A stretch of DNA of 64,000 nt from a bacterium (GCA_030693325.1 JAUYAV010000019.1:1324-65323), one strand, 5' to 3'. Counted from the first letter of the stretch, positions 824 through 48,319 are shown. Notes: a model not told the origin generated them from the sequence alone. Numbers and translations: made by a program.

Positions 824-2524
824 TTAAAAAACCAACGGCCCGGTCAATTTTTCCACCTCTTCAAAAGTGGTCAAGCCGGAAAGAACTTTAATAATGCCGT
901 CCTGCTGCATGTTCACCATATCTTGTTCTTTGGTCAATTTTTGAAGGTCTAAATCCGTGACTTTTTCTGAAATCGCTCTCATCACTTCCGGGGTCATCAA
1001 GAACAATTCAAAAATACCAAGCCGCCCCTGATAACCCAAACCACCGCACCACTGACAGCCCTCGGCTTCAAAAATTTTTCCGCCAGAGGCGGATCCGCCT
1101 TGGGCGGAGAAATTATCAAAACTGCTTTTATCCACCCTTGCCGGCAATTGGCTGATAAATTTTTTAATTTTCTTGGCCAATAAATCATCAATTTTTGCCT
1201 CTTTTCTGCAAACCGGACAAAGTTTTCTGACCAAACGCTGAGCGATAATCAGATTAATGGAAGGCGAAATCACCGAGGGCTGAACGCCCAAGTCAATCAA
1301 GCGGGGAATAGCGCCCACTGCTTCGTTGGTGTGAAGCGTGGAGAAAACCAAATGACCGGTCAAAGCCGCGTGCATGGCGATCTGGGCGGTTTCCAAGTCG
1401 CGAATTTCGCCGACTAAAATAACATCCGGGTCCTGCCGCAAAATTGAACGCAGACCGTTGGAAAAATCATAACCGGCTTTAGGGTTAACCTGCGTCTGTT
1501 CAATTCCTTCAATATGATATTCTATCGGGTCTTCAATGGTAATAATTTTTATTTCCGGCTGATAAATTTTTTTGAGGAAAGCATAAAGAGTGGTAGTTTT
1601 ACCCGAGCCGGTCGGGCCGGTATTGAGAATCATTCCATTGGGACGCTTTAATTCTTTTCCGATAATTTCCAAATCGTCTTTTCGCAAACCCAGTTTTGCA
1701 AAATCAACTTTTATAATAGCGGGGTCTAAAATCCTCAAAACAATGGTTTCGCCGAACTCCGAGGGAATAATTGAAGTCCTGATTTCAATATCCACATTTT
1801 CCAAACCGATGGTGAAACGGCCGTCCTGCGGCTGGTCATGAATATTTAATTTCATTTTTGAAAGAAGTTTTATCCGGGAAACCAGCGCCAAATAAACAGA
1901 GGAAGATAAATCATATAAATCATAAAGCAAACCGTCTATCCGCAGCCGCAGTTTGGCGTTGGCCCGGGCCGGTTCAAAATGAATATCCGAAGCCCGGCTG
2001 ACGAAAGCGCCGGCTAAAATAATTTCCAAAATCTGGGAAATCTGCGGCTCTTTGAATTCCTGAAGCTGAATTTTAAATTTTTCAAGGTCGCTTATTTTTT
2101 TTGTTAATTCCTTTATTCTGTCGGAGGCAATTTCCACCTTGCCGGTGATTTCTTTAGCATCCGGAGTGACAAATTGATAAAAAGTCCAGGCGTAATTCAA
2201 ACTTTCCTGGGAAACAATAAATATTTCCGGTTCATAGCCGTCAATTTTTAATTTGGCAATTATTTTTTTGGCTTCGGAAGTATTCGGGTCAAAAACCGCC
2301 AAACTTAATTGTTTTTTCTTTAAAAGAAACGCGGCCAATTTGGCTTCCTCCGCTTCTTTGTTGTTTATCAAACGCAGGGCTTTGGTCTGAACCGGCACGG
2401 TCGCCAAACTGATATAAGAATAATTTAATTTAGTCGCCCGGCGCTGGGCTTCCCGCTCCTGGGCTTCGTGGCGCTCTTTGGCCAATATTTCCCCTAAATT
2501 AGAATTTTTTTGTTCCCCGATCAT
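824..2524 (-). CDS. pilB: Type IV pilus assembly / type II secretion ATPase (PilB/GspE family)
   Basis: 566 aa; Walker A GPTGSGKTTTLYA; N-terminal GspII-like region; C-terminal CPVC...CQWC tetracysteine zinc motif typical of GspE/PilB. Confidence 0.85.
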   Translation of the reverse strand: MIGEQKNSNLGEILAKERHEAQEREAQRRATKLNYSYISLATVPVQTKALRLINNKEAEEAKLAAFLLKKKQLSLAVFDPNTSEAKKIIAKLKIDGYEPEIFIVSQESLNYAWTFYQFVTPDAKEITGKVEIASDRIKELTKKISDLEKFKIQLQEFKEPQISQILEIILAGAFVSRASDIHFEPARANAKLRLRIDGLLYDLYDLSSSVYLALVSRIKLLSKMKLNIHDQPQDGRFTIGLENVDIEIRTSIIPSEFGETIVLRILDPAIIKVDFAKLGLRKDDLEIIGKELKRPNGMILNTGPTGSGKTTTLYAFLKKIYQPEIKIITIEDPIEYHIEGIEQTQVNPKAGYDFSNGLRSILRQDPDVILVGEIRDLETAQIAMHAALTGHLVFSTLHTNEAVGAIPRLIDLGVQPSVISPSINLIIAQRLVRKLCPVCRKEAKIDDLLAKKIKKFISQLPARVDKSSFDNFSAQGGSASGGKIFEAEGCQWCGGLGYQGRLGIFELFLMTPEVMRAISEKVTDLDLQKLTKEQDMVNMQQDGIIKVLSGLTTFEEVEKLTGPLVF

Positions 2525-12290: not shown

Positions 12291-12315
12291 TTACGGTAAT
12301 TGCTGTAATTACTCA
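12262..12315. repeat. GTAATTAC palindromic 9-mer array (jag end / convergent gene)
   Basis: gaattacagcaattacagcaattacagtaattacggtaattgctgtaattact; also encodes a QQL repeat at the jag C-terminus. Confidence 0.8.
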
Positions 12316-13421: not shown

Positions 13422-13464
13422 ATTATCTTAAAGATTAAGAATTAAAAGCTCAGATAATAATTAT

Positions 13465-14854: not shown

Positions 14855-14865
14855 AATTTGAGTTT

Positions 14866-14910
14866 CAATTACTTAATTACCCAATTACTTAATTACTGTT
14901 TAGTAATTTT
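14866..14910. repeat. TAATTAC-type repeat array
   Basis: caattacttaattacccaattacttaattactgtttagtaatt. Confidence 0.6.
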
Positions 14911-15282
14911 TTCGGTAGCGGCCCCTATTTTACCACTAGCAACTGCCGCTACTTGTGTTATTTTGGGGTGGTTAGCTAAATAAATTGTCACATTCAAACT
15001 GACGGTTTTCCCGAAAGGAAGGTCAAGCCCTAAGAAATTAGCCGCCCCATCCAACAAACTGCCGCTTAAATACCACAACCCCTTTATTCCTTTCATTATA
15101 AGCCAAAACTGAATAATTAGCCAAGTGAACCCGGCCACAATCCATTTTACTACTAAAAGAATTTGTCCGAGCACCGGTATGGCTACCAAAAGAGTTGCCG
15201 CTAATTCAAACAAATCCGCCGGGATCACAATCATATTCATCAGAATTATTTCCACTAAACCAATTTTTGGGCTTTCCTCCAT
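14893..15282 (-). CDS. Small polytopic membrane protein (T4SS-like cluster)
   Basis: 129 aa with 3 predicted TM helices. Confidence 0.4.
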   Translation of the reverse strand: MEESPKIGLVEIILMNMIVIPADLFELAATLLVAIPVLGQILLVVKWIVAGFTWLIIQFWLIMKGIKGLWYLSGSLLDGAANFLGLDLPFGKTVSLNVTIYLANHPKITQVAAVASGKIGAATEKITKQ

Positions 15283-15304
15283 TTTTCTTAATTACTAATT
15301 ACTT

Positions 15305-17056: not shown

Positions 17057-17726
17057 TTTCTTTGGTTATTTTCAATTCTCCCCTTTCAACTAATTGGGGG
17101 TTATAAAGATTGTAAACAAGCTCAATGGATTCTTCGGTGCCGAGCGGAATCGCCCGCAAACCGATTTGCTGAAGGCCGGCAACCACTTGGTCAGTTCTCT
17201 GGCTAAGTTGCTGGAGATTTTGCTGGAGATTTTCGGTTTGAGCGGCCTGGTTTTGGGAAGCCGAAGTTTTTTCCTGCCTGTCGGCAGGCAGGGCTTTTTT
17301 AATAAAACTAATTACGCCTTTGGCGGCTTTCGGCAAATAAACCGGGTCATAAGGGACTACCACAAAAAAAGTTTTATCCATAATGGCGTTATTCGCCACA
17401 AATGATTTTATAAATTCCAGGTATTCGGCAATCTGGGTTTTCAATAATTCATTGGATTCCTGCGAATGGCGTTCCTGGAGTTTTGAAAGATAGGATTCAA
17501 TATTCAGGCGGCGGGAATGAATGAAAATCTGGATTGAAAAGTCCAGGGCATTCAAGAGATTTTGATAACCGTAAGTCATCAAGTCCTGTTCTTGTTCTGA
17601 TTTTAAATCAAAATTCACTCCGCTTACCATTAACAACTGGCGCAAAGCGCCGTTTTTAAGAAAAATTACGCCGTCGCGGATTTCCTGAAGTTCCACGAAT
17701 TCCTGGGTTGATAATGTTTTGGGCAT
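17049..17726 (-). CDS. VirB4-family N-terminal domain protein (split from ATPase part, 8-nt ATGCCTAA overlap)
   Basis: IRDGVIFLKNGALRQLLMVSGVNFDLKSEQEQ resembles Gram-positive VirB4 (PrgJ/TcpF/Orf16-type) N-termini. Its stop overlaps the downstream start. Confidence 0.55.
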   Translation of the reverse strand: MPKTLSTQEFVELQEIRDGVIFLKNGALRQLLMVSGVNFDLKSEQEQDLMTYGYQNLLNALDFSIQIFIHSRRLNIESYLSKLQERHSQESNELLKTQIAEYLEFIKSFVANNAIMDKTFFVVVPYDPVYLPKAAKGVISFIKKALPADRQEKTSASQNQAAQTENLQQNLQQLSQRTDQVVAGLQQIGLRAIPLGTEESIELVYNLYNPQLVERGELKITKENA

Positions 17727-17748
17727 TTATTTAATTATAAATTTTTAA

Positions 17749-18252
17749 TTATCTATAGTCCACTCTTTTCGCCGCTTGTTTTTCACCGGTGGATTTTCGG
17801 AAAATTTGATAGCGTTCTTGAACGTTTCGCATGGCGGATTTTTCTCCGGGCAGAGGCAAACGGCTGGTTAAAATTTTTTGGCCGAGGGATTTGATTTTTT
17901 GCTGGAAGCTCAGTTCTTTTTTAATTTCTTCAATTTGCTTCGCTTCTTCTGGCAAAATTATTTCTTCTTTTTCAATTTCTCTTTTCCAAAAATAAACTCG
18001 CGGCCGCCAGTAATAAAATAGAGCGGAAAAAAGGATTTTGGTCAGTGATTGGCCGTTGATTTCTATCAAAGCCAGCGCGCTGGCCGCTCCGAGTAAAATA
18101 ATACTGGCCATAAACCAAAGCCAAAATTGAAAAATAAAAAACATAAGAAAACTCAACCCGCATGCTGCGGCGATATAAAAAAATTGCTGGAGGGTTAAAG
18201 GTCCGACAATTCTTTCTTTAACTTCGTAATATTGAGGAACTTGAAACTGCAT
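17749..18252 (-). CDS. PrgI/VirB3-like two-TM protein
   Basis: Two adjacent TM helices (FFYIAAACGLSFLMFFIFQFWLWFMASIILLGAASALALI) and a charged C-terminus; directly upstream of VirB4 as in Gram-positive T4SS. Confidence 0.5.
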   Translation of the reverse strand: MQFQVPQYYEVKERIVGPLTLQQFFYIAAACGLSFLMFFIFQFWLWFMASIILLGAASALALIEINGQSLTKILFSALFYYWRPRVYFWKREIEKEEIILPEEAKQIEEIKKELSFQQKIKSLGQKILTSRLPLPGEKSAMRNVQERYQIFRKSTGEKQAAKRVDYR

Positions 18253-18253
18253 A

Positions 18254-18287
18254 AATTACAGTAATTACAGTAATTACTGTAATTGTT
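18254..18287. repeat. GTAATTAC palindromic 9-mer array
   Basis: aaattacagtaattacagtaattactgtaattg. Confidence 0.8.
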
Positions 18288-19290
18288 TATTATTCTTTAG
18301 ATTAATAGTGTTTCCTTCCAGTTTCACTTCGTTTGGATTTTTGTTTTCTCTTGCCACGCTAAAAGAATCAAGATTAATGACCGGCGGCGCCGATGGCGTT
18401 ATTGGTTTTGGCAGTTCCGGTTTTATAATAGGCGTCTCAATTTTCTGAGGCGCGATTTCTTTTTGGGGTTGTTCTCTTTGTTTTCCAAAAGGATCGCCTT
18501 GAGTTTTACCGAAGGGAGTGGGGATATCCACTTCTCGGTAATGAATTATTCTCTGTTTCGGGGCTTCGGTTTTGGCAACGACTGGTTCTTTTTTCTCTTC
18601 GATTTTTTGGCCGAAAGTTTCCAATTCCACTTTAATCGGCGATTCCGGCGTTTTAGAGCTTTCTTTTTTAAACCAACCCATAGTCGGCATCGTTGTTTTC
18701 TTTTTTTCGGTAAACGCTTTGGTTTCGGTTTCCTGATGGATGATAAACGGCTGTTCGGCGGAAATTGGCTTCGGAGAAATAACCGGTTCAATTTTCGGCG
18801 GCTGGATTTCGGTTTTGGGCAATTGCGCGGCTTTCGGCAGGTCGGTTATCTCAATGGGTTTGGTTGTAGCTTCTGGTCTGAGGCCTGACGGTTTAAACTC
18901 AATTTCTTTTTCAACTTTCGTTTCCGGTTCGGATTTGATTGTTGGTTTTATTTCCGTCATCGCGCTAGCCGGGCTATAAACTTTTTCTAAATCTGTTCTA
19001 AGCGGGGCAAAAATTTTTCTATTAATTTCATGGCTGATAGGATTAACAATTTGAGGATTCAAATTGAGGGCTTCCTGGATTTCCCGAGCCAGGTCATCGG
19101 GATGAAGAAACCCGAAAATTACATCGCCGACTATCATCGCCATAGTAGAAATTTTTTCCTCAGACAGATGATTAAGGGTGCCGATTTGCCAAACAATATT
19201 GGCATTAATTTCAGAGAACAAAGCCTCTCTCAGGTTATCCGGTAAAGTATCCCATCTTTCTAAAACTTGTTGTCGTGAGATTTGAAGCAT
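18274..19290 (-). CDS. Pro/Lys/Glu-rich disordered protein with structured N-terminal domain (hypothetical)
   Basis: C-terminal half is low-complexity PKxE repeats. Confidence 0.4.
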   Translation of the reverse strand: MLQISRQQVLERWDTLPDNLREALFSEINANIVWQIGTLNHLSEEKISTMAMIVGDVIFGFLHPDDLAREIQEALNLNPQIVNPISHEINRKIFAPLRTDLEKVYSPASAMTEIKPTIKSEPETKVEKEIEFKPSGLRPEATTKPIEITDLPKAAQLPKTEIQPPKIEPVISPKPISAEQPFIIHQETETKAFTEKKKTTMPTMGWFKKESSKTPESPIKVELETFGQKIEEKKEPVVAKTEAPKQRIIHYREVDIPTPFGKTQGDPFGKQREQPQKEIAPQKIETPIIKPELPKPITPSAPPVINLDSFSVARENKNPNEVKLEGNTINLKNNKQLQ

Positions 19291-19309
19291 AAATACAAAT
19301 TATTAGTTA

Positions 19310-21250
19310 TTAAGTTGTAGGTGGCGGAGTCGCTGACCCCGAAGGTGTTATTTCTTCGGCGAATAATCGCTTCCCTAATGTTTTTTTATAAACCGCTCTT
19401 GCTTGCGCGCCTAATTTCCTCATTGCCTCGTCTTTGTTTTTTTCCATAAATGATATTTCTTTTTCGATAAGCGACTTATAATTATCAACAGTTCCTTCTT
19501 TAATGTGCGGCATAACCCTGCCAAACGCTCCGGGGGTCTTTCGGGCGAAAGCGCCAATTAACTGTTTTTGAATATTTTGAAGCTTAGAATCGGTTGTCGT
19601 TTTAAAAATTTCATTCCATTGCCCTTTCGCGTAATCTTTGGGATCAAGCGATTTAAGAAATTCGTCCGTAGCAGCCACTAATTCGTCGTTTGTTTTCGCG
19701 GACACCATTCCCACGCTACGCCCGATAGCTTTTGTTATATTTCCAAAATTAAGCCCTGTGGTTTTGAAATCTTTTTCAACATTAGCCATAGTTGCTCCAT
19801 TGGAGAAGTATTTTGATATTGTTTCCGTGCTTAAATCTTTTTTCTTGGCTAATTCTTCAAGAATAACAGCTCGTTTTATGCCGGTCGCAGCTTGAGCTTC
19901 AATGTTTAACCTCTGAGGTGACAGCCCCGCGACTTGTTTCCTATATTGTTCGGCGGGCACCCGTTCCGCTTGAGCGCCCAAACGATTAATGCCTTGGCCA
20001 ACCCATTTCGCCGGAGCGAATTTTGAATTGGCTAAATTCCTGGTCCAGCCTTTGACTTTCTCGGATCCGGTTACTTTCCCAACACCTTCCCAAGCTTTTC
20101 TGCCGGCGAATCCTTTGATCCCCTTGCCAGCCGCCGACGCCACATTCAAAAAGGTTTTTGCCCCGCCGATTCCCATTTTGTCGGAGATTATCAATCCGAA
20201 CATCAAAAATCCGCCCACTATAACTAAATTAATAACACTGCCGGCAAAATCTTTCATCGGAGTGCCGCCAAATCCCATAAGGTCGTTTAGCTTTCCAACG
20301 CCTTGAGCGTCAAGAGATATTCCGCCGGTGAATGTTTTGTAGTTGTTGGCGAGATAAACCGCCAGATAAAAGAAAAATGAAGCAACGGGAGCGAATATGA
20401 TCCATTTTATGAAATTTTTCCACCACTCTTTCCACATAGATTCGGTTGAAGGTAAAATCATGGAAAGGCAAGCTAAAGGGACCAAAACCAAAAGCACGCT
20501 CAAATTAAGATATCTTAATATAAACATCGCCGCCACCGCTATCAGGCACAATGCTACCAAAAGAGTGAAAACAACCGCGAAAACAAGGCCGGCAATTATT
20601 TTTACCGCTCCGCTGAAAGTGAGGATATTTGCTGCAAAATCGGCGGCGTCTTTCACGCCCAGAAATTGTCCGACATTAAAAGCCGCGGCAAGAGACGTTC
20701 CTAACCCCCCCACTCCCGCGCCGGTAATGTTTGAAATAAAATACTTGGTCAGCATATTGGAAAAATCAATAAAAACGCCGGCGAACATTAAACTGAAGTT
20801 GACCAAAAGCGCCACCGCGATTAATTTCCCCAAAGTGCTTTTGGCTTCGTATTGCTGCATCCGGAGAATGGTAGCGATGGCGATGATAATAATGAATAAA
20901 ACAAAACCTAGATTCGCCAGGTCCCTCGTGATTTTCCAGCCGACGTCAATAATGGGGTTTTGGATAACCGCGAAATTCAAACTGAGAGCAAAATTACTCA
21001 AAAATCCGCCTATCTGAACGGCAATACTGGCTATACTGCCGGCAATAAGACTGATTCCTATAATTGTTAAAGACAATGGCACTGCCGCAATGCCACCGAC
21101 CACATCTAATCCTGTTAAAACAGGGTTAGAAGAAGAATTAGAAGTTGCCGCTGGCGAATCGGCCGCGTAAATTTTCCCCGTATTTCCAATCAATAAAAAC
21201 ATAATCAGGCCTAAAGTGACAATCGCCAATATTTTTTGTTTTTTGTTCAT
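19310..21250 (-). CDS. VirB6/TrbL-like polytopic membrane protein with C-terminal soluble domain
   Basis: Signal peptide, then at least 6 TM helices over ~350 aa, then a ~250-aa hydrophilic C-terminus. Position and topology match VirB6-like T4SS channel proteins. Confidence 0.5.
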   Translation of the reverse strand: MNKKQKILAIVTLGLIMFLLIGNTGKIYAADSPAATSNSSSNPVLTGLDVVGGIAAVPLSLTIIGISLIAGSIASIAVQIGGFLSNFALSLNFAVIQNPIIDVGWKITRDLANLGFVLFIIIIAIATILRMQQYEAKSTLGKLIAVALLVNFSLMFAGVFIDFSNMLTKYFISNITGAGVGGLGTSLAAAFNVGQFLGVKDAADFAANILTFSGAVKIIAGLVFAVVFTLLVALCLIAVAAMFILRYLNLSVLLVLVPLACLSMILPSTESMWKEWWKNFIKWIIFAPVASFFFYLAVYLANNYKTFTGGISLDAQGVGKLNDLMGFGGTPMKDFAGSVINLVIVGGFLMFGLIISDKMGIGGAKTFLNVASAAGKGIKGFAGRKAWEGVGKVTGSEKVKGWTRNLANSKFAPAKWVGQGINRLGAQAERVPAEQYRKQVAGLSPQRLNIEAQAATGIKRAVILEELAKKKDLSTETISKYFSNGATMANVEKDFKTTGLNFGNITKAIGRSVGMVSAKTNDELVAATDEFLKSLDPKDYAKGQWNEIFKTTTDSKLQNIQKQLIGAFARKTPGAFGRVMPHIKEGTVDNYKSLIEKEISFMEKNKDEAMRKLGAQARAVYKKTLGKRLFAEEITPSGSATPPPTT

Positions 21251-21251
21251 T

Positions 21252-22811
21252 TTATGGAGTCGTGACTATACAGAGAGATAAGCGGGATTGAATTGATGAA
21301 AGCTCGGCTTGCTTGTTTTTGGATTCGTCTTCGCTGGCTTTTTTGGTTGTTTCCGGGCCCGGGGCAATTTCTAAAATAAGGGACTGATATTTTGTCAGAA
21401 AATCATTATAGTGCTGGGTCAAAAGAGCCATTTCCCGGTCTCGGAAATCAGCGGAAATATTAACAGCTTCAGTTATGCCGGCTTGATTTTCATTAACAAT
21501 GATTTGATAATTAGCAACTTCATTTGTCAAACGAGTAATTTCGTTTTGAGCGCTGGTTATGTCGCTGTCAGAAACCGGCGGCTGGCAGTTACGCGTTTTT
21601 AACGCATTTAAGTTCGTAACTATTTGCTGTTCGGAAGAAAGAGAGGATTTTTTATTGGCTAAAATTGCATTGAAATAAGCAAGGAATGCCTGATAATCAC
21701 TTTTTATCCGGTCTCTTTCTTGCCTTTTCGCCAAAAGAGCGGGGTCATAATTTCCATAAGGATTATAATTGCCGGAGGCGGAACTCTGGGGCGTGGTGCT
21801 CGGTTTCATTAAACTTAAACCCTCTGTAAAAAGACGATTGATGGTGGCGTTGACCAGGGCCGCTACCCAAGATTGGATATTCTGAGCCCATTGATAATCA
21901 GATGTAACGGCTTGAGCGGCTAACGCGCCGACAGTATCGCCTGGAGTAACAATTTCTTCTTTAATACACTTTATTGTCCCATCGGGTAACTGGGTTGAAG
22001 CTAAACATCTTTTAACCGATAAAAATCCCTTACCGGCTATGGCTTCGTTTTGAGCCGCTTCTTTGGCTTTGGCGCCCTGGATCATTGCTTCATCCATCGT
22101 CATATACAAAGAACCGTAATAATTATTTTCCGGCCACCAGGATTGTTCGTAAGCTATCCAACTGCCATTTCGGAAGTCGTCGTAGAAATTTTGAATATTG
22201 GCGACAATATCGTCAAGGGTGCAGGAAATCCGGTTTTGAAATCTTTGCACCGGCAACAAACTTATTCTGACTTGCAAGCCGAAGGGCTTACAGAGAAAAT
22301 TCAAATTGCTGTTATTGATAACTTCGCCCACCCCCGTGTTAAAAGCGTCGCCTAAAAATGTGTCCCAATTGGTGACGTATCTTGGCTGGCCGCCGCCCTG
22401 AATCCAGTTCACGGTTTCGTCAACAAGCCAGTCCAAGATCATTTTAGCAACGACATCGCGGACGCAATTTTTGGATTTCATAAGAGCGTCGGAGGTTTGT
22501 TGTTTGGAAATTTCGCTCGGCAGATTCACTACCGTTGTGGGCACGGTGAGCATTAAGACGCTTGTTGCCAATTCTGTGACATCCTCCACTTTATGAATAA
22601 TTTTAGATGCCAGTCCGGCGACGAAGTTTTCCAGTTGAATTCCCAAAAAACAGCTTACCCCCGCGCCTATGGCTTGGCCAACGGCTTCTCCTGGCGTGCT
22701 TGCTCCCGCTTGAGCCGCCGCTTTAGGCGTAAAAACATTGCCCAAGCCGCCGAAAATAAGCGAAGAAATGGTTATTGTTAGAATAATTTTTTTAAAAAAT
22801 AAAGATTTCAT
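21252..22811 (-). CDS. Secreted protein, coiled-coil C-terminus (T4SS-like cluster, unknown)
   Basis: Signal peptide MKSLFFKKIILTITISSLIFGGLG...AAAQA; 519 aa. Confidence 0.4.
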   Translation of the reverse strand: MKSLFFKKIILTITISSLIFGGLGNVFTPKAAAQAGASTPGEAVGQAIGAGVSCFLGIQLENFVAGLASKIIHKVEDVTELATSVLMLTVPTTVVNLPSEISKQQTSDALMKSKNCVRDVVAKMILDWLVDETVNWIQGGGQPRYVTNWDTFLGDAFNTGVGEVINNSNLNFLCKPFGLQVRISLLPVQRFQNRISCTLDDIVANIQNFYDDFRNGSWIAYEQSWWPENNYYGSLYMTMDEAMIQGAKAKEAAQNEAIAGKGFLSVKRCLASTQLPDGTIKCIKEEIVTPGDTVGALAAQAVTSDYQWAQNIQSWVAALVNATINRLFTEGLSLMKPSTTPQSSASGNYNPYGNYDPALLAKRQERDRIKSDYQAFLAYFNAILANKKSSLSSEQQIVTNLNALKTRNCQPPVSDSDITSAQNEITRLTNEVANYQIIVNENQAGITEAVNISADFRDREMALLTQHYNDFLTKYQSLILEIAPGPETTKKASEDESKNKQAELSSIQSRLSLCIVTTP

Positions 22812-23630
22812 TTAAGATCCGATTTCTTTTATTTTTTCTCCTAAAATGGTTTGAATTTTTTCACCGCTACTAACCAAGCTATCCATGGCTTCTAAAGCCA
22901 AACCTCCCTTAGGTGGGTCAGTGGGATAATAAGCCATTGCCCGATAGACAACCGCCGAGTTTTTGGCGTAAACAATCATCATTTTATGGATATCAACCCA
23001 ATCCGCCGGGACCGTCAGATTCAAGTATTGGTCAGCCAAGTTTTTATAAATACCGGCTAAACGATTAGCTGAAGAAGGATCGATTTTTTGGTAAGTATCA
23101 ACTATTACTTGTAAATAATTTTCGTTAAAGTCGCCAAAAGTTATTTTATTGATTTCTCCGATGGCTTTTAAGTATCGGGTTTTGGCTTCTTTTGAAATCT
23201 CCGATGAAATTTTTAAGTCAGCATTATTTACGGTTGATACTAATTTGAAATCTGATAAGCTGTCATTAATAACTTTATTTACTAAATTTTCCGATGCCGT
23301 GTTTATATCAGGAGACAGGGTTCTTTTTTCCTGGTTTACGAGATTATTATTTTGGATTTCCTCAAAAAGATTTTCCCCTAAGGCTTTTACGGTGTTATTT
23401 TTTTCGTCAAAATTATAAGGAGTTCTTGGTTCTGGCGTTGGAAGAGAAGTTAATTTAATTTCTGGCGAATTTTCGTTAGGAATAGATTGTTTTTTTGGAG
23501 TGGTAACGAAATAAGCCCCGGTTAAAAATGCGATTACTACCAAAATTATAAGCCCTGATTTTAGGGTTTTCATTAATTTAATTATAACAAATTCTATGAT
23601 ATTATTGTACCATAGAATATGGTTAAACAA
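22812..23630 (-). CDS. Membrane-anchored protein, first gene of T4SS-like operon (unknown)
   Basis: Single N-terminal TM; 272 aa. Confidence 0.4.
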   Translation of the reverse strand: MFNHILWYNNIIEFVIIKLMKTLKSGLIILVVIAFLTGAYFVTTPKKQSIPNENSPEIKLTSLPTPEPRTPYNFDEKNNTVKALGENLFEEIQNNNLVNQEKRTLSPDINTASENLVNKVINDSLSDFKLVSTVNNADLKISSEISKEAKTRYLKAIGEINKITFGDFNENYLQVIVDTYQKIDPSSANRLAGIYKNLADQYLNLTVPADWVDIHKMMIVYAKNSAVVYRAMAYYPTDPPKGGLALEAMDSLVSSGEKIQTILGEKIKEIGS

Positions 23631-39199: not shown

Positions 39200-39682
39200 T
39201 TAGGGAAACAAATGAATATTTTTATCAAAAATTCCCCATTTATAAAGCCGGTATAATGATTTATACCTATCAGAAACATCCGGGTCGCTTCCGATTTTCT
39301 CTAACCAATCAATAAATTGTATGGCCTTATATCCCTTTAATTTTTTATAGAAAAAGGGGATTATAATATCTTTCAACTGCTCAAAATCTCTTACTACCAA
39401 CGCCGCCATTCTTCCTCTTTTATAGCCATCGCCAGTCCATGCTTTATGATTATAAATTGGATTTTTTAAATCTAAAGAATCTCTCACCATTTTTAACAAA
39501 TTTTCGTCTCGCTCATGCATTCCTATATAAAAAGTAGGCATTTTACACTTTCTACCGTTCTTTTGGCGCCATCCAGTATGGAAACTAAAACAGCCTTCGC
39601 CAGTAACTAAGCCCCTGATATAATCATTGGTTAAAGTTTTTTTGTTCAGGATGGTTTGTTTGTTGACGAACACTTCGCTCAT
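39200..39682 (-). CDS. Free-standing LAGLIDADG-type homing-endonuclease-like protein (single-motif, 160 aa)
   Basis: IRGLVTGEGCFSF matches the LAGLIDADG_3 motif (lAGfiDGEGsF); second conserved block IGMHERDENLLKMVRDSL; size fits homodimeric single-motif enzymes. Confidence 0.55.
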   Translation of the reverse strand: MSEVFVNKQTILNKKTLTNDYIRGLVTGEGCFSFHTGWRQKNGRKCKMPTFYIGMHERDENLLKMVRDSLDLKNPIYNHKAWTGDGYKRGRMAALVVRDFEQLKDIIIPFFYKKLKGYKAIQFIDWLEKIGSDPDVSDRYKSLYRLYKWGIFDKNIHLFP

Positions 39683-41661: not shown

Positions 41662-41707
41662 TATTGTTATGAAACTATTTCACTTCTTCCAATCTTTGTC
41701 ACAGGTC

Positions 41708-41758
<51 letters not shown>

Positions 41759-41927
41759 AAAGCGGAGCCAGTAAACAGGTCCGCCGCTTAGCGATAATCA
41801 ACCTCCTCCTGATTCTCACCGTGGCCTTTTTGGTCAAGGTGGTTTTTGATTTGAACAGCAGTTTGGCCAACCCGCCCCATCAGAGCGGGGTTTTTGTTTC
41901 CCCTTCTCAGGCAGCTAACTGATAATA

Positions 41928-41990
41928 GAAATTTTCAATTTCTAATTTTCAATTTCTAATGAATTTTCAATGATTTAATTTTCAATGTTT
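41928..41990. repeat. Direct repeats AATTTTCAAT(TTCT) x5 in pilin upstream region
   Basis: aattttcaatttctaattttcaatttctaatgaattttcaatgatttaattttcaatg. Confidence 0.7.
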
Positions 41991-42059
41991 AAAAATTAAA
42001 AATTTAGTCATTGATTAAAAATTTTAAATTTAAAATTGTTTTATTGTAGAAAAAGTAAT

Positions 42060-45000
42060 ATGAATAAATCTAATACAGGATATACTCTCATCGAACTATT
42101 AATCTACACCGTTATCTTTGCCATCTCCGTCGGCGTCTTCTCCGGCGTCCTCATTACTTTCACCAGAGTTCAGACCCAGACTTCGGCTGATTCCGAGCTC
42201 ACCCAGCAGTTGTCGTTCGTCCAGTCAACTATCCAGCGGCTCGTCCGGGACAGCGCCAATATCCAAAATCCGGCCGGAGTCGCTTCTTCCAGTTTGGTCT
42301 TAAGAATGGCTTCTTCCTCTTTAGACCCCACCGTTATCTCCTCCGACGCCAACGGCATCTATCTCCAACAGGGCACAGGAGAAGTCATTCCTATCACCAA
42401 CAGCCAGGTCAAGGTTGCCCAGTTTGAGGCCATCAAATACGAAAACCCTAATGCCCACGCCATTGTCCAAGTCAATATTGCCTTAACCTACAACAGTCAG
42501 AATCCCTACCAGCAGATAACGAGAGCCCTTAAGATCGCCATCGGCAGAGTGTCCGCCGCCACCTTTGACGATAGTTTGATTCCCAATACCAACAATTCTT
42601 TTTCCCTGGGTGATGCCACTTACAAATGGAAAGACATCAACATTTCCAATCTCCTCAACGTGGGCCAGTTGATCACCGACCCCGTGGCCGGAGCCCAGAA
42701 CGGGTCTATCTATTACAATACTTCCTCCAGCGCTTTCCGGGGTTATGCCAACAGCGTTTGGTCTGTTCTTGGAGGCGTGGGCTGGGCCGCTTCCTCCACC
42801 AATATCTACAACACCAATGCCGGGAACGTGGGGATCGGCACCGCCAGCCCGGGTGATACCTTGGATGTAAACGGCTCTATTGTGACAACCGGAATCCAAG
42901 ACACCGGGAAAACTACCAAGATGTGGCTGTCAGGCGCTATAGCAGCCAAAACTCTTGATTATATGGAATACTCCTCCGACGCCAATGCACAGGTGGCGTA
43001 TGTGAGTAATGCTACTATAGCTAATCCAATATCTCATTGGAAGATGAATGATAATGCTGCTACTACAGTTGTGGTAGATTCAATGAGTGCTAACGCAGGA
43101 ACTGCTGATGCTAATACAGATACATTAGATACAACAGGAAAAATAAATGGTGCACTTTTGTGCAGTGTTTCACCAGTAAGAGCAGTAGCGATTGGTTCTA
43201 CGGGTTTTCCTGCTGTCAATACAGCGAGGTCTGTTAGTCATTGGGTATATCTTACATCAAGAAATGCTATTGGTGGAACATTCAGTTTTGGATATGGAAC
43301 AGGAGATACTAATAAGGGGTGGGCTATAGACGCAGGCGGAACATCTTCCACTACTCCATTACGAGTTGCTGGCTATTCAAATGATTGGTCTACTAATTAT
43401 ACTTTACCTTTAAATGAATGGCACCTTATTACTGTAACTTATGATGGAACGAATCTATTAAAATTATATGTGGATGGCACATTACAAGATTCTACTACAA
43501 GTTATACATTTGCTACTGTTCTTTCTACGGCGTATATTGGAGGAAATTGGGATGGCAGTGCTGCATATAGATTTAATGGTTCAATAGATGATGTTCGTAT
43601 CTATAATTTTGTTTTAACTGCAACAGAAGTCTTAGGACTCTATAATAATAATGCTGGAACTGAATTACAAAATCCTCAAGGAAATCTCCAATCCTACTCC
43701 GAAGCCACAATCAAAACTCAAGGAAGTTATGCGTTGAAGGCGGTGGCAGCGATAACGACTTCACTCAACAAAACCCTCACCCGCACCGTATCGCCTACGA
43801 TAGATTTATCTAACCAAACTCAGATCAAGTTTGATATTCGTGCCTCAAGACCTGGAAGCAATATCAAGATAGGCATCCATGATAGCGGCGGAACGACCAC
43901 TGAAACAACGCCTAATATTGCTTCAGCAGACACATATCAAACTATTACTTGGGATATATCGACGGTAACCAATGCCAATAAAGATGCGATAGACCAGATT
44001 ATAGTTACTATCATTAATGCGGACGCTGCCAATACTTTCTATATAGACAATTTGTATTCGCCTTCTGTCGGGTCGCTTGCCGATATCATATTCACGACAG
44101 CCAGTTCGGAAAGAATGAGGATTGATTCCTCCGGCAACGTCGGCATCGGGACGACGGTGCCGGGGGCGAAATTGCAAATAAGTAATGCTGACCAAACTTA
44201 TGCTCTTACGCTTGAAGATGCGAGAACTGGAAATGGACATTGGGTTAGATTTACAGAAGGCGGAACTGAAAAATGGGTTTTGGGACAAGTCGGCAGTGGA
44301 GTTGCTGGACGAGCAGATAATTTTGAAATTGTAAGTGGAAACGGCACTACTCGGTTGGCGATTGCTTCAACAACTGGCAACGTCGGCATCGGGACGACGG
44401 GGCCGGGGAGCCTTTTACACGTCAAGCATCCAAGTGGGAATCTGACGACCAGATTTGAGGGTTTGTCTAATTCGTATTCTTCAAAAATGTATTTAAGTTC
44501 CGTTTCCTCTGGCGATGGCGGCATGATGTATGATGCGGCTAGTAATCTCAGCAATATATTTTCCTACGGTGACCTCAGATTTAATGTAGGTACAGCAAAT
44601 ATATCGGGAGCAATTGGAAACGAGAGAATGGTTATACAACAAGGCGGCAACGTCGGCATCGGGACGACGGGACCGGGGTCACGTTTTACTGTTTATCAGA
44701 ATGTTTCCGGCGCTACAACGGCAGGAATGGAACTGAGATATGATGGTACTATCCACAGAAAGATGTATATGAATTACTCCGGTGATATGTATTTCTATAA
44801 TGGCACTAATGAGGGTTATCTTTCCTCAGCGGGCGTTTGGACAAACGCTTCTGACATCTCCTTAAAATCCAACATTCGGCCAATTGAGTATGGTTTGGCC
44901 GATCTATTAAAACTTCAACCGCGTTCTTACGAAATGAACGCTGACGGATTGCCTCAAATTGGGTTCGTGGCTCAAGAGGTTGAAGGGATAATTCCGGAAC

Positions 45001-45326
45001 TTGTTTCTATAGGTGGGCAAGGGTTAAAGGGTCTTTCTTATGGCAACCTGACTGCAATCAATACTAAAGGTATCCAAGAGCTTTACCAAAAGGTGCGTGG
45101 AGTTGATACGGCAGAAAATGGGGATGTAGCAATAACCGGCAACGTCGGCATCGGGACGGCGGATCCGGGAAGTTATAAATTAAAAGTCGTTGGAACTGTA
45201 AGTGTAAATAGCGGCACTAATATTATTTACAGATGCACAACCGCGGGAACGCTTCCAATCGGAGCATTAACAATAAATTCAGGAAATTGTGGCGCGAGTG
45301 CTGATACGGGGTTAAGTGTGAATTAG
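42060..45326 (+). CDS. Giant type IV pilin-like protein: class III signal + LamG-like lectin domain + GNVGIGTTxPG tail-fibre-like repeats + C-terminal S74 intramolecular chaperone domain
   Basis: Start at ATG 42060: MNKSNTG/YTLIELLIYTVIFAISVG prepilin signature with Glu at +5. LamG_3-like block (WHLITVTYDG...LYVDG...FNGSIDDVRIYN). Five GNVGIGT(A/T)xPG repeats. C-terminal SDISLKSNIRPIEYGLADLLKLQPRSYEMNADGLPQIGFVAQEVEGIIPELV matches the endosialidase-chaperone (Peptidase S74) consensus SDxRxK...GfIAQEVeevlPelV. Confidence 0.75.
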   Translation: MNKSNTGYTLIELLIYTVIFAISVGVFSGVLITFTRVQTQTSADSELTQQLSFVQSTIQRLVRDSANIQNPAGVASSSLVLRMASSSLDPTVISSDANGIYLQQGTGEVIPITNSQVKVAQFEAIKYENPNAHAIVQVNIALTYNSQNPYQQITRALKIAIGRVSAATFDDSLIPNTNNSFSLGDATYKWKDINISNLLNVGQLITDPVAGAQNGSIYYNTSSSAFRGYANSVWSVLGGVGWAASSTNIYNTNAGNVGIGTASPGDTLDVNGSIVTTGIQDTGKTTKMWLSGAIAAKTLDYMEYSSDANAQVAYVSNATIANPISHWKMNDNAATTVVVDSMSANAGTADANTDTLDTTGKINGALLCSVSPVRAVAIGSTGFPAVNTARSVSHWVYLTSRNAIGGTFSFGYGTGDTNKGWAIDAGGTSSTTPLRVAGYSNDWSTNYTLPLNEWHLITVTYDGTNLLKLYVDGTLQDSTTSYTFATVLSTAYIGGNWDGSAAYRFNGSIDDVRIYNFVLTATEVLGLYNNNAGTELQNPQGNLQSYSEATIKTQGSYALKAVAAITTSLNKTLTRTVSPTIDLSNQTQIKFDIRASRPGSNIKIGIHDSGGTTTETTPNIASADTYQTITWDISTVTNANKDAIDQIIVTIINADAANTFYIDNLYSPSVGSLADIIFTTASSERMRIDSSGNVGIGTTVPGAKLQISNADQTYALTLEDARTGNGHWVRFTEGGTEKWVLGQVGSGVAGRADNFEIVSGNGTTRLAIASTTGNVGIGTTGPGSLLHVKHPSGNLTTRFEGLSNSYSSKMYLSSVSSGDGGMMYDAASNLSNIFSYGDLRFNVGTANISGAIGNERMVIQQGGNVGIGTTGPGSRFTVYQNVSGATTAGMELRYDGTIHRKMYMNYSGDMYFYNGTNEGYLSSAGVWTNASDISLKSNIRPIEYGLADLLKLQPRSYEMNADGLPQIGFVAQEVEGIIPELVSIGGQGLKGLSYGNLTAINTKGIQELYQKVRGVDTAENGDVAITGNVGIGTADPGSYKLKVVGTVSVNSGTNIIYRCTTAGTLPIGALTINSGNCGASADTGLSVN

Positions 45327-45376: not shown

Positions 45377-45650
45377 AGAATTTATAGGTAGTCCTAAAAC
45401 TCATCGCAGTCTCCATCCGCAAACCTACCCCTCGAAGCCTTTCAACGGAGACAGCCTGCCGCCTATAATTTAATCTTGCTTTTTATCCCCCTCTCCCGTT
45501 CCCTTCAATTTCCTTATCTCCTCCCCGATCTCATCAAAAAATCCCTCATAGAATTTCTTGTCTTCTACGGTTATTTCCCCTTCTTTCAATCTCTCCGCGG
45601 CTTTCTTTTAATCTCTTGGTGTTTTCACCCCCGCCACCGGGTAATAAGTT

Positions 45651-45682
45651 CCTCACTGATATACTTAAGTATATCAGTGAGG
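45651..45682. repeat. Perfect 32-bp palindrome CCTCACTGATATACTTAAGTATATCAGTGAGG
   Basis: Read directly; a 22-bp core copy is at 46358..46379. Confidence 0.9.
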
Positions 45683-45787
45683 AAGAATATCTTTTTATTT
45701 TATAATTATCTAAGAAGTACATTATCGAGGTCGAACCTTGATAATTCAAATTGACAAAAAGTTTTAACACGCTAAAATAATAATTAT

Positions 45788-46473: not shown

Positions 46474-46560
46474 TTGAGATTTTTATTATACTTTAGCCGG
46501 TGTTTGGGCTATTACTAAGGTCTGTTTTTTTATTTCTTCCAAAAGTTTTTTGTCTTCAAT
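46474..46560. repeat. Partial duplicate of the recA 3' end and downstream sequence (direct repeat with 47296..47395)
   Basis: 38 + 33 identical nt blocks (gagatttttattatactttagccggtgtttgggc ... tttttttatttcttccaaaagttttttgtcttc). Its minus-strand reading frame ends ...[23 protein letters not shown], like RecA. Confidence 0.85.
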
Positions 46561-46596: not shown

Positions 46597-46827
46597 ATGG
46601 TCACTATCACTATTCCTAAAAAAGAATATCAAAACATCATTCAGAGACAATCGCTTCTTGAAAAGGAAATGGGGTTTTTGAGAAAGACCCTTTTCGAGCT
46701 GGATGAGATAAATATTAAGCCGTCTGTCTTGCGCCGATGGGAGCGTATTAGCCGTGAGCTTGATCGGGGACACGGCCGTTCTTTTTCTTCGTTTAGTGAG
46801 ATGAAAGGATGGTTAAGAAATCTCTGA
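46597..46827 (+). CDS. Putative antitoxin of RelE/ParE-type module
   Basis: 76 aa; immediately upstream of the toxin with 1-nt spacing. Confidence 0.5.
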   Translation: MVTITIPKKEYQNIIQRQSLLEKEMGFLRKTLFELDEINIKPSVLRRWERISRELDRGHGRSFSSFSEMKGWLRNL

Positions 46828-46828
46828 T

Positions 46829-47122
46829 ATGGCCGAGAATGTCTATAGAGATATTGTAAGAATTATATATTCCCGTGAGGTTGAAGACGCTCTCAAGAAA
46901 CTCAAAAAGAGAAATAAAGATATATTTGATAGAGTCGAAAAACAGATAATCAAAATTCTTCGCGAGCCGAATATCGGCAAGCCGCTCCGCTACACTTTAA
47001 GAAACCGCCGACGGGTGCATGTCGGCTCTTTTGTTTTAATCTACGAATTTCATCAGGGCGAGTTGCGCTTTATTGATTTTGATCACCATGATTTAATTTA
47101 TAAGAAGTCCAAGCAGCAATAA
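46829..47122 (+). CDS. RelE/ParE-family toxin
   Basis: ...EPNIGKPLRYTLRNRRRVHVGSFVLIYEF... fits the RelE/StbE fold pattern; 97 aa. Confidence 0.6.
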   Translation: MAENVYRDIVRIIYSREVEDALKKLKKRNKDIFDRVEKQIIKILREPNIGKPLRYTLRNRRRVHVGSFVLIYEFHQGELRFIDFDHHDLIYKKSKQQ

Positions 47123-47317: not shown

Positions 47318-48319
47318 TTATACTTTAGCCGGTGTTTGGGCCGCGGTGAGGGTCTGTTTTTTTATTTCTTCCAAAAGTTTTTTGTCTTCTTTTAATTTTA
47401 ATTTGGCGGCTTCAAGACCGACACCTAATTTTTCTTTATTGAAACTGTAAGTGTTGCCGGATTTGATGACACTGCCGTATTTAATAGCGGTATTCAAAAC
47501 ATCGGCTTCCGGGACGATTCCTTCGCCGAAAATAATTTCAAACTCGGCGATTTTAAAAGGCGCTGCCACTTTATTTTTGACTACCTTAGCATGCACCAGC
47601 TGGCCGATTATTTCTTCGCCTTTTTTCAGTTTGGCTTTGGCCCGGATATCAATTCTAATTGAAGAGAAAAATTTCAAAGCGCGGCCGCCGGGAGTCGTTT
47701 CGGGATTGCCGAACATAATTCCGATTTTCATCCGGATTTGGTTGATAAAAATAATGACGGTTTTTGATTTGGAAGTAATGGCAGTTAATTTTCGCAGGGC
47801 CTGGCCCATCATCCGGGCTTGCAAGCCCATAAATTGATCGCCCATTTCGCCTTCAATTTCCGCGCGGGGAGTAAGAGCCGCCACCGAGTCCACTACGATT
47901 AAGTCAATTATTCCTGACCTTACCAGACTTTCAACGATATTCAGGGCCTCTTCGCCGCTGTCCGGCTGAGAAAGTAAGAGGTCGTCGGTTTTTACCCCAA
48001 GTTTTCTTGCGTAATCAATATCAAAAGCGTGTTCGGCGTCAATATAAGCGGCTTTGCCGCCTTTTTTTTGAAGCTCGGCAATGGCATGAAGAGTTAAAGT
48101 GCTTTTGCCCGACATTTCCGGGCCGTAAATTTCCACCATCCGGCCGCAGGGCAGACCGCCTACTCCCAAAGCCAAATCCAGAGAAAAAGAGCCGGAAGGG
48201 ATGACCTCGGTTTTGCCGATTTTTTTATCTCCGAGCCGCATTATAGATCCTTCGCCGAATTTAGTTTTTAAACTTTCAATTAAATCGGAAAAATCTTTGT
48301 CTTTATTGGTTTTGTCCAT
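47318..48319 (-). CDS. recA: Recombinase RecA
   Basis: Walker [11 protein letters not shown]; L1/L2 loop regions; 333 aa. Confidence 0.95.

Follow-up and report, generated by a model that had tools for sequence, protein, structure and literature searches.

A probable modular minor pilin of Patescibacteria with a tail-fibre-type extension and a recurrent 25-nt junction motif

Introduction

How a bacterium could come to carry the parts of a phage tail fibre on a type IV pilin, and what it could use them for, is the question raised by one gene in a 64,000-nt stretch of DNA from a metagenome-assembled genome (MAG; GCA_030693325.1, JAUYAV010000019.1:1324-65323). This stretch is called the window here, and all positions are counted from its first letter. 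The gene, at 42060..45326 on the + strand, encodes a protein of 1088 amino acids (aa), which an earlier note, made from the sequence alone, had described as a pilin signal fused to a lectin domain, tail-fibre-like repeats and a phage chaperone domain. The question has a wider setting. Bacteria of the candidate phyla radiation (CPR), or Patescibacteria, account for much of the diversity of bacteria, and every cultivated member is found attached to other microbes. To our knowledge, the way in which they recognise their hosts is largely unknown.

We consider it rather probable that this is a gene for a modular minor type IV pilin in a Patescibacteria (CPR) bacterium; the pilin would carry a fibre of the type found in phage tails and in the mosaic adhesive trimers (MATs) of Bdellovibrio, and its modules would be exchanged by recombination at a short sequence motif. 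A large family of pilin-anchored, lectin-bearing, MAT-like fibres with exchangeable modules is a concrete candidate for a host-range determinant, in parallel to the fibres with which Bdellovibrio recognises its prey and to phage receptor-binding proteins.

Results and Discussion

Domain architecture of the protein

The open reading frame (ORF) of the modular minor pilin or fibre protein starts at an ATG, while an alternative in-frame start, a TTG upstream at 42036, would give 1096 aa. The product is identical to NCBI MDP3052754.1 (P0001 in our set), where it is annotated as 'LamG-like jellyroll fold domain-containing protein'. No full-length homologue of MDP3052754.1 was found; the best matches span only 25-47% of the protein.

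MNKSNTG-YTLIELLIYTVIFAISVGVF is the N-terminal sequence. Counted from the cleavage site predicted after Gly7, it has the Gly at -1, a Tyr at +1 and a Glu at +5. All elements of a class III (prepilin) signal can be read from the sequence, namely a polar leader, the Gly, the Glu at +5 and a hydrophobic stretch. Together with the hydrophobic start of helix alpha1 the signal occupies 42060..42149 (+), and Pfam N_methyl matches it with an E-value of 2.6e-4. The consensus G-F/Y-T/S-L-x-E-L-L-x-Y recurs in the 40 homologues listed, and in the alignment of 40 sequences Leu10 and Glu12 are invariant and Tyr16 nearly so. The pilin module proper (residues ~8-165; 42081..42554, +) consists of a 55-residue alpha1 helix followed by an antiparallel beta-sheet. 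It has the long alpha1 on an antiparallel sheet that characterises the pilin fold, and it is modelled confidently as a complete, GspJ-like fold. A conserved neck follows (residues 166-315; 42555..43004, +), which belongs to the same N-terminal module (N-module). It holds the first, degenerate copy of the motif described below (42822-42848) and ends the block that is rich in G and C at third codon positions (GC3). Homology of the N-module to P0003, P0004, P0006, P0007 and P0023 stops at residues 272-283, and the nucleotide high-scoring segment pair (HSP) with L001, a locus from a different MAG, stops at 42838.

Residues 316-542 (43005..43685, +) form a LamG, or concanavalin-type lectin, cassette with a GC3 of 0.15, delimited by its Laminin_G_3 match and by the GC3 segmentation. 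Pfam Laminin_G_3 (PF13385) covers residues 380-524 (E 3.5e-21). By Foldseek, at E ~1e-8, the AlphaFold2 (AF2) model of this region resembles the carbohydrate-binding domain of AbnA, the lectin domain of a trans-sialidase, the Hc part of botulinum toxin and the CBM40 of NanA. As modelled, the region is a jelly roll akin to carbohydrate-binding domains, with a putative role in sugar binding. A second beta-sandwich without a Pfam family (residues 543-667; 43686..44060, +) was recognised in the AF2 model, with predicted local distance difference test (pLDDT) scores of 73-93; it is found in three copies in P0005 (up to 61% identity) and in one copy in P0009 (64%).

Three MAT-like beta-helix repeat units, each opening with the junction or capping-loop motif, make up residues 668-930 (44061..44849, +), as placed by a sequence search of the PDB and by the motif positions. 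The last 452 residues match 8OND (Bd2133) at E 1.6e-8, 8OML at E 1.4e-4 and the S74 part of T5 pb1 (6F45) at E 1.2e-3. GNVGIGT repeats are present five times, starting at residues 255, 692, 773, 863 and 1027, and the five copies of N-V-G-I-G-T-x-x-P-G-x-x-L fit the capping-loop consensus of MATs, V-G-G/N-pi-x-x-P-x-x-x-L (PMC10769870). The fibre parts were modelled as monomers only, and with low confidence.

The protein ends with an S74 intramolecular-chaperone region (residues 931-1088; 44850..45323, +), to which both the Pfam match and the match to 6F45 point. Peptidase_S74 (PF13884) matches residues 931-982 with an E-value of 3.3e-11 and 43.8 bits, against a cut-off of 22. The SDxxxK motif is S931-D-I-S-L-K936, with Ser931 and Lys936 as putative catalytic residues, and it is kept in the S74-bearing homologues. 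A BLAST search with the last 83 residues gave matches through the motif only, and in this search the final ~45 residues had no recognisable relative.

Much of the earlier note was confirmed by these results. It had proposed a class III prepilin signal with Glu at +5, for which MNKSNTG/YTLIELLIY, the N_methyl match and the consensus in homologues now speak, a LamG_3-like domain, seen again in the PF13385 and Foldseek matches, and five GNVGIGT-type repeats, which are all present. Its S74 chaperone domain, against which it had said that a missing profile match would count, is found with a profile match above the cut-off and with the SDxxxK motif. The same note had spoken of phage tail-fibre modules. 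This holds for the S74 domain and the repeats as such, but among proteins of characterised structure those closest to the repeat region are the MAT fibres of Bdellovibrio and not phage proteins.

A family of modular pilins in Patescibacteria

Relatives were collected from the GTDB species genomes, whose representatives do not include the MAG of the window, with a single peptide pattern (RVSAATFD). It matched 155 stretches, of which 133 were confirmed as relatives and 80 loci were kept, nearly all of them labelled Wolfe-, Jorgensen-, Colwell-, Harrison- or Liptonbacteria or other Patescibacteria. The close relatives of the 1088-aa protein all come from Patescibacteria-type MAGs. A library of 1.84 billion representatives yielded 239 clusters (50% identity) at E <= 1e-30 and 783 at E <= 1e-10. 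Members of the family range from ~230 aa (pilin only) to >1600 aa, and a free-standing pilin of ~230-290 aa is kept in many genomes. When 85 members were scanned, N_methyl was present in 69 (E < 1e-3), Peptidase_S74 in 16, Laminin_G_3 in seven, the phage tail Collar family in two and Peptidase_G2 in one; LVIVD, Gly_rich_2, beta-helix, F5/8-type-C and Kelch are further C-terminal modules of the family. The combination of LamG and S74 in one protein was not seen in the other 119 matches listed.

Four proteins, P0001, P0003, P0004 and P0023, have accessions within a run of 343 (in numerical order MDP3052476, -656, -754 and -819) and N-modules that are 82-88% identical, and differ in their downstream parts. 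We infer that they are paralogues of one genome. One of them, P0023 (MDP3052819.1), is encoded on the same contig outside the window. Its called start is the equivalent of residue 164, and it is without signal and pilin fold; Gly_rich_2 and LamG modules come after the neck and the first motif, which it keeps at 88% identity. Possible explanations are a silent cassette truncated at its 5' end, a pseudogene or an artefact of gene calling.

Pilin and fibre are not always fused. In five genomes (L050, L051, L055, L073 and L074) a short pilin of the family is followed by two small membrane-protein genes and then by a separate fibre gene, which contains 5-17 copies of the motif and whose product bears a Sec-type signal and, in some cases, S74. 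L066 and L078 likewise have pilin and fibre genes side by side, here as adjacency only. This pattern of fusion and fission links pilin and fibre in function. The fuller gene order in the five genomes, located at ~7-20 kb of each locus, places a membrane protein of ~560-680 aa (M.RFFEI.PG.LAWLT...) ahead of the short pilin; the two genes between short pilin and fibre gene encode a transmembrane (TM) protein of ~170-190 aa and then one of ~150 aa (..SEYSAVYL..GDIYFGKLSWFP..). The fibre gene that ends this order is large, and its motif copies are of the canonical form.

Mosaic composition of the gene

A change-point model of third-position GC was best fitted by three segments, with a GC3 of 0.63 for codons 1-315, 0.15 for codons 316-542 and 0.42 for codons 543-1088. 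The other 48 ORFs of the window have a GC3 of 0.41 +/- 0.05, and none of their 261 100-codon windows lies above 0.60 or below 0.22. Since these ORFs stay within 0.22-0.60, the first two segments of the gene are both outliers, in opposite directions. N-module homology gives out at residue ~283, and the first change point (43005) comes ~16-30 codons after this; the LamG and beta-sandwich block is homologous to P0005 from residue 299. Homology of the beta-sandwich alone starts at residue 542-548, which is the second change point (43686). The mosaic base composition reported in the earlier note is thus real, and it lies at synonymous sites; its figures were somewhat too extreme, as 42100-43000 has 52% GC and not 55-60%, and 43030-43680 has 37% and not 33%. 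Its conclusion that the mosaic reflects domain shuffling is upheld by the change points near the end of N-module homology and at residue 543.

Under the preferred reading as a modular pilin, the gene is a patchwork of a constant GC3-rich pilin module, shared by at least four apparent paralogues of the same MAG, a very AT-rich LamG cassette and a C-terminal fibre of ordinary composition. In L001 the same module has a GC3 of 0.70 in a context of 0.40 GC; in L300, an ENA assembly, GC3 is 0.61-0.71 over the module and then 0.24-0.47, in a context of 0.42 GC. An elevated GC3 of the N-module as a family-wide trait was considered and rejected, because the median excess over flank GC is only 0.056 and the trait is marked in the clade of the window, L001 and L300. 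In L301, which is the P0005 gene and the closest relative of the LamG and beta-sandwich block, GC3 is lowest over the LamG part (0.16-0.25, codons ~450-675) and 0.3-0.4 elsewhere. The LamG cassette seems to be AT-rich wherever it is located.

Could the mosaic be an assembly artefact, that is, a contig joining reads of different populations across the shared repeat motif? The source is a MAG, the first change in composition comes ~50 codons past a repeat motif common to many genomes, and the contig of L001 breaks 1.1 kb into the homologous gene, all of which would fit such a false join. The frame, however, is open across 1088 codons. The first motif copy is degenerate, being more than three positions off the canonical 25-mer, so that no long exact repeat is available for a false join there, and at the second change point (43686) there is no repeat. 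Moreover, the GC3-rich N-module recurs within low-GC genomes in L001 and L300, and proteins combining N-module and LamG are encoded in several independent assemblies (P0003, P0006, P0007 and P0008). For these last two reasons misassembly is unlikely as the source of the mosaic, and we give the artefact very little credence. The earlier note had itself pointed to a chimeric origin of the GC-rich stretch at 42.1-43.0 kb as a finding that would overturn it; this is unlikely, since L001 and L300 show the same GC3-rich module.

A 25-nt motif shared with uncultured phages

Within the window, the 25-mer GGCAACGTCGGCATCGGGACGACGG is found inside the fibre gene only. It is exact at 44133-44157, 44376-44400 and 44646-44670, has one mismatch at 45138-45162 and occurs as a further, degenerate copy at 42822-42848; shuffled sequence gave no matches. 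The earlier note had counted four copies, which is correct for three exact ones and one with a mismatch, although its coordinates were off by 1-4 nt. It had taken them for intragenic, conversion-prone repeats. Repeats they are, but they are not merely intragenic, as the DNA motif is conserved across genomes and in phages.

In the 80 CPR loci, which have a GC of 0.38-0.56 and pilin modules only 30-48% identical to the query, the canonical 24 nt were found at 34/92 GNVGIGTT sites, where the codon usage of the ORFs concerned would predict 0.007. Each codon of the motif has a share of 0.71-0.90 in these loci, against a background of 0.14-0.39. The control peptide RVSAATFD does not vary in these genes, and its 70 copies show 67 encodings, whereas a single encoding accounts for 42% of the 156 copies of GNVGIG. 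Codon bias as the cause of the identity is ruled out by the same-ORF expectation and by this control. At the 127 loci with an exact 25-mer, the motif is always in frame as GNVGIGTT and in direct orientation (127/127), and the conserved Pro, Leu and Val just outside it carry only 0.14-0.23 bit at their third positions. Because these flanking residues are synonymously saturated, the repeat units are not young as wholes, and a recent common origin of whole units was ruled out on this ground. A diversity-generating retroelement, a shufflon-type invertase and DNA uptake sequences were rejected as well, the copies being direct, in frame and confined to the fibre gene in the window, with no adjacent recombinase or reverse transcriptase.

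The exact 25-mer is also present in at least 107 dereplicated IMG/VR clusters with a GC of 0.32-0.66. Five IMG/VR contigs were checked and carry major head, portal, terminase, protease or tail genes. Among 50,697 GenBank phage records (INPHARED) the exact 25-mer was not found, the best match being 92% over 25 nt in Synechococcus phages. Of 120 stretches that encode GNVGIGTTG by whatever codons, 21 are loci already in the exact-25-mer set, and the remaining loci show 88 encodings over 108 sites. The canonical form, wherever it is present, accounts for 71% of the GNVGIG copies; where it is absent, the top encoding reaches only 4%. This split suggests two gene pools. Variants close to the canonical form have most of their changes at third positions, as if they had decayed after copying.

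Homology breakpoints and proposed recombination

Nucleotide homology stops at a motif copy in all five related pairs examined (5/5). The paralogues L011 and L022, on one contig, are 89% identical over 964 nt up to 10806, with the motif at 10775-10801. Homology also stops at a motif copy in the pairs L004/L006 and L059/L065, and the end of the HSP between the window and L001 lies within the motif at 42822-42848. The pair L036/L053 has an unrelated block at 1510-2595 with motif copies at 1497 and 2595 as its borders, as expected of a replaced cassette. Over all loci, 56 of the 170 HSP ends inside fibre ORFs (33%) are found at <=10 nt from a motif, compared with 8% for random positions, a statistic which is inflated to an unknown degree by the tendency of BLAST extension to stop at a conserved motif. 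Most inter-locus HSPs (1430/1780) are blocks of ~49 nt centred on the motif.

These patterns point to an exchange of modules by in-frame homologous recombination at the ~25-nt motif. The length of the motif is close to the minimal segment for efficient RecA recombination. Each recombinant junction would be a perfect motif by construction, which would explain the synonymous identity across genomes and uncultured phages, and frequent exchange would keep the canonical form common. We tentatively suggest, as a possibility that falls short of an even chance, that GGCAACGTCGGCATCGGGACGACGG serves as the standard in-frame connector of a pool of fibre modules, for receptor binding and for the stem, common to Patescibacteria and uncultured phages, possibly their own, and that the rise in GC3 is a by-product of GC-biased repair. 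It is speculation that such repair at recombining segments lies behind both the G or C at the codon ends of the motif and the high GC3 of the constant module.

The identity of the 25-mer might also have nothing to do with recombination. The 25-mer could work as a site in the DNA or RNA, bound by a protein or a small RNA or causing translational pausing, or it could belong to a young motif class that has recently spread horizontally. The sharp edges of the block would suit such an explanation, as would the fact that all eight codons end in G or C regardless of genome GC and that variants are mainly third-position ones, as after recent spread. A 5-bp inverted repeat (CGTCG...CGACG) lies within the motif as well, but its stem is too weak to support structure, and no candidate recombinase, RNA or binding protein is associated with the motif. 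A site of this kind would also leave aside that homology blocks stop at the motif far above chance, that it lies near the constant/variable boundary of the paralogues and that it occurs only in frame as GNVGIGTT. We therefore regard this explanation as doubtful and keep recombination at the motif as the preferred one.

The closest precedent is gp38 of T-even phages (Trojet et al. 2011, PMC3157838), where conserved glycine-rich motifs (GRMs) lie between hypervariable segments and recombination between the motifs swaps specificity. As in gp38, short conserved Gly-rich motifs alternate here with variable receptor-binding segments, and the homology breakpoints are at the motif. The GRMs, however, are conserved within one group of closely related phages, whereas here a single 25-nt encoding is found across genomes of 0.32-0.66 GC, between saturated flanking codons and in bacterial as well as viral genes.

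If the connector proposal is true, epibiotic ultra-small bacteria could refit their pilus-borne host-recognition fibres with phage-type parts, and the identity over 0.32-0.66 GC would be the footprint of this. If recombination does take place at it, the motif would be an exceptionally clear example of the conserved 'linker sequences' proposed in the modular theory of phage evolution, and one that works across the boundary between cells and viruses. In addition, a single 25-mer retrieves fibre genes from metagenomes and marks likely module boundaries for the engineering of chimeric fibres.

Proposed function and known systems

According to the reading that we prefer, a prepilin peptidase would cut after Gly7 and helix alpha1 would hold the protein in the membrane. 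The S74 domain would zip three chains into a trimer from the C-terminus and then cleave itself off at Ser931. The three pilin modules may seed or cap a type IV filament, like the homotrimeric CofB and TcpB or the GspI-J-K tip, and the lectin-bearing fibre would be pushed outward, where it could bind surface glycans of the bacterium hosting the CPR cell. Prepilin processing, location at the pilus tip, trimerisation, self-cleavage and binding of host glycans are thus steps that we infer.

MATs are described by Caulton et al. 2024 (PMC10769870) as trimeric beta-helix fibres of S74 and non-S74 classes, with the SDxxxK and capping-loop motifs, an invariant N-terminal anchor and exchanged tips. The protein resembles the MATs of Bdellovibrio bacteriovorus (Bd2133, Bd3182) in the sequence of its repeat region (8OND, 8OML) and has the same capping loop, V-G-x-G-x-x-x-P-x-x-x-L. 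Further common traits are the occurrence of S74 and non-S74 classes, an N-terminal anchor that stays constant through a multigene family while the C-terminal tips are exchanged, and an owner that must recognise other bacteria. All 21 Bdellovibrio MATs, on the other hand, have a Sec signal and a conserved beta-rich anchor of ~130 aa, in the place of which a type IV pilin module is found here, and the LamG and beta-sandwich domains of our protein lie mid-fibre and not at the tip only. With a class III signal and a pilin fold instead of the MAT anchor, the protein is not filed as a member of the MATs but as a carrier of a MAT-like fibre. A nucleotide-level junction motif for MATs was not found described in the parts of PMC10769870 consulted.

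Modular pilins were surveyed by Raynaud et al. 2021 (PMC8179133), where pilin+PF13385 and IPR012902-IPR030392 (pilin+S74) rank in the top 15 architectures by frequency, with many examples from CPR genomes. As in PilB (vWA) and PilC (lectin) of S. sanguinis, a functional module is grafted on a pilin module (PMC8179133). Unlike the present protein, in which at least five modules are joined and LamG occurs with S74, the characterised modular pilins are monomeric and bimodular, and S74 was read in that survey as a 'predicted peptidase' and not as a trimerising fibre chaperone (PMC8179133). The earlier note had called the architecture notable. It is real but not singular, as it belongs to a large Patescibacteria family and both pilin+S74 and pilin+PF13385 are among the frequent modular pilins (PMC8179133). 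The architecture itself is a variant of known modular pilins and MAT fibres; the unexpected feature is the nucleotide-level junction motif common to Patescibacteria fibre genes and uncultured phages. Our search of the literature found no paper that joins 'pilin' with 'Peptidase_S74' or mentions an NVGIGT motif.

For a trimer on pilin modules, CofB of enterotoxigenic Escherichia coli (ETEC) and TcpB of V. cholerae offer a model. They are large homotrimeric minor pilins with beta-rich C-terminal domains, which are predicted at the pilus tip and initiate assembly (PMC8179133), so that three pilin modules beneath one trimeric head are a workable design. Both are type IVb pilins of diderm bacteria, however, without S74, beta-helix repeats or a sequence relationship to our protein, whose own trimerisation is a prediction. 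Among CPR bacteria, the lectin-like minor pilins PilX1 and PilX2 are known from Saccharibacteria, where PilX2 is required for efficient host binding (PMC11623550). They are likewise large minor pilins with lectin-like C-terminal domains, but they belong to a different pilin family with a beta-propeller or L-type lectin head, and neither tail-fibre repeats nor S74 are described for them (PMC11623550).

With the S74 proteins of phages, such as the K1F endosialidase and T5 pb1 (6F45), the protein has in common a Peptidase_S74 match above the cut-off, the SDxxxK motif and the match to 6F45. Those proteins are attached to a virion; here the attachment is to a pilin, and 158 aa with a further fibre motif follow the catalytic Ser. 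The gene might still be suspected of being a phage or prophage tail-fibre gene within the bacterial chromosome, as S74 and the repeat motif are typical of tail fibres and several relatives are named 'tail fiber domain-containing protein' by NCBI. We find this extremely improbable. The flanking genes scanned contain no phage structural, integrase or lysis family, the neighbours being CofD/YvcK, tRNA-His, HicAB, ParE, RecA and FtsK, and the gene begins with a pilin module, while a class III signal was found in none of the 120 motif-bearing viral ORFs (0/120).

A PilB/GspE-type assembly ATPase (T2SSE) is encoded at 824..2524 (-), with a Pfam E-value of 2.7e-118, and judged by this match the genome appears to have type IV filament machinery. 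The ATPase, the GspJ-like fold and the free-standing short pilins of the family speak in favour of a role in a pilus. A serious rival, which we nevertheless think unlikely, is a fibre on the cell surface that at no time belongs to a pilus, with the class III signal used for export and as a membrane anchor only and the trimer standing on three N-terminal helices, as MATs stand on their own anchor. Such a fibre would be in keeping with MATs, which are displayed on the surface without a known pilus link (PMC10769870), and with the lack of any pilus assembly gene adjoining the locus. In seven related genomes the fibre is a separate Sec-signal protein, so a pilin in cis is not needed. Nevertheless, the pilin module is a complete and confidently modelled GspJ-like fold, which is more than a signal peptide, and it is kept as a free-standing protein of ~230-290 aa in many genomes. 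Minor pilins of the GspJ type act at the tip or in priming, the window encodes a T2SSE ATPase, and large lectin-like minor pilins are required for host binding in Saccharibacteria (PMC11623550). The reading as a minor pilin is therefore retained.

A number of points weigh against this reading and the exchange of modules that it includes. The N_methyl match (residues 3-26) reaches 20.9 bits, just below the Pfam cut-off of 21.2. The pilin gene is solitary, amid CofD/YvcK, tRNA-His, toxin-antitoxin and housekeeping genes, and the T2SSE ATPase, the sole type IV filament gene in the window, is unlinked and 40 kb away; no prepilin peptidase or platform gene was seen in the 64 kb. The tail past the catalytic Ser is 158 aa long and holds the fifth motif copy, whereas most homologues have ~80-130 aa and a few 137-227 aa. 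With such a long tail and an extra motif copy, the C-terminus may be a product of recombination that has no function. A trimeric fibre on a filament that is built monomer by monomer is topologically demanding and has its precedent in type IVb tip pilins only. Incorporation into a pilus, cleavage, trimerisation and ligand binding are predictions, and the paralogues are assigned to one MAG by the numbering of their accessions only. As to the exchange of modules, an old transfer or biased gene conversion, instead of recent shuffling, could account for an N-module rich in GC3 in three genomes, and the third-position variation of the motif also fits a recent common origin of the motif class.

Genomic surroundings

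The window has a GC of 0.405. It contains the housekeeping genes murD-like, pnp, nusA, clpP, recA and ftsK, with dnaA, dnaN and a conjugation-like cluster nearby, and has the look of a CPR/Patescibacteria chromosome.

About 200 nt 5' of the pilin gene, a block at 41669-41906 (+) consists of (GA)23, followed by ~150 nt and a terminator-like hairpin (41871-41898). It is 95% identical to 9692-9932 of L001, upstream of the homologous gene there, whereas the coding sequences are only 82% identical and the neighbouring genes differ. L001 is the only other locus in which the block was found; its 22-nt core string was absent in a scan of JGI metagenomes, Rfam gave no match to the block even at E <= 1, and its folding z-score is only -1.09. 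An ORF of 40 aa in the block, MKLFHFFQSLSQVP(RE)n..., is kept in frame in both the window and L001. A change of 2 nt in the GA repeat would fuse this ORF to a tail with a transmembrane helix, which suggests phase variation. Between the terminator-like hairpin and the start codon, at 41914-42049, lies an AT-rich tandem repeat with a 14-nt unit (AATTTTCAATTTCT, ~4 copies) and related repeats of 25-26 nt. It is missing in L001 and could be a promoter or regulatory array.

In the region directly 3' of the gene (45400-45700), which contains no convincing ORF, a strongly C-rich stretch (GC skew -0.57) precedes a perfect 12-bp inverted repeat with an 8-nt spacer, cctcactgatat-acttaagt-atatcagtgagg, at ~45652-45683.

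A free-standing LAGLIDADG homing-endonuclease ORF (39200-39682, -; Pfam E 3.5e-10) lies between tRNA-Val and the UPF0102/YraN gene, and Rfam gave no rRNA or intron context for it in the window. The conjugation or type IV secretion-like cluster at 12309-23630 (-), which adjoins dnaA and dnaN, includes a TraG/VirB4-like ATPase (15305-17056), a PrgI-family protein (17749-18252), a weak match to a type IV secretion system (T4SS) pilin (13465-14178) and large ORFs without a Pfam family (19310-22811).

Finally, the C-terminal ~20 residues of RecA (46486-46560, -) recur at the end of a 95-aa ORF (47318-47390, -) ~800 nt downstream. The two copies flank a ParE-type toxin-antitoxin pair (46597-47122), and the duplication looks like one left by the insertion of a cassette at the 3' end of recA.

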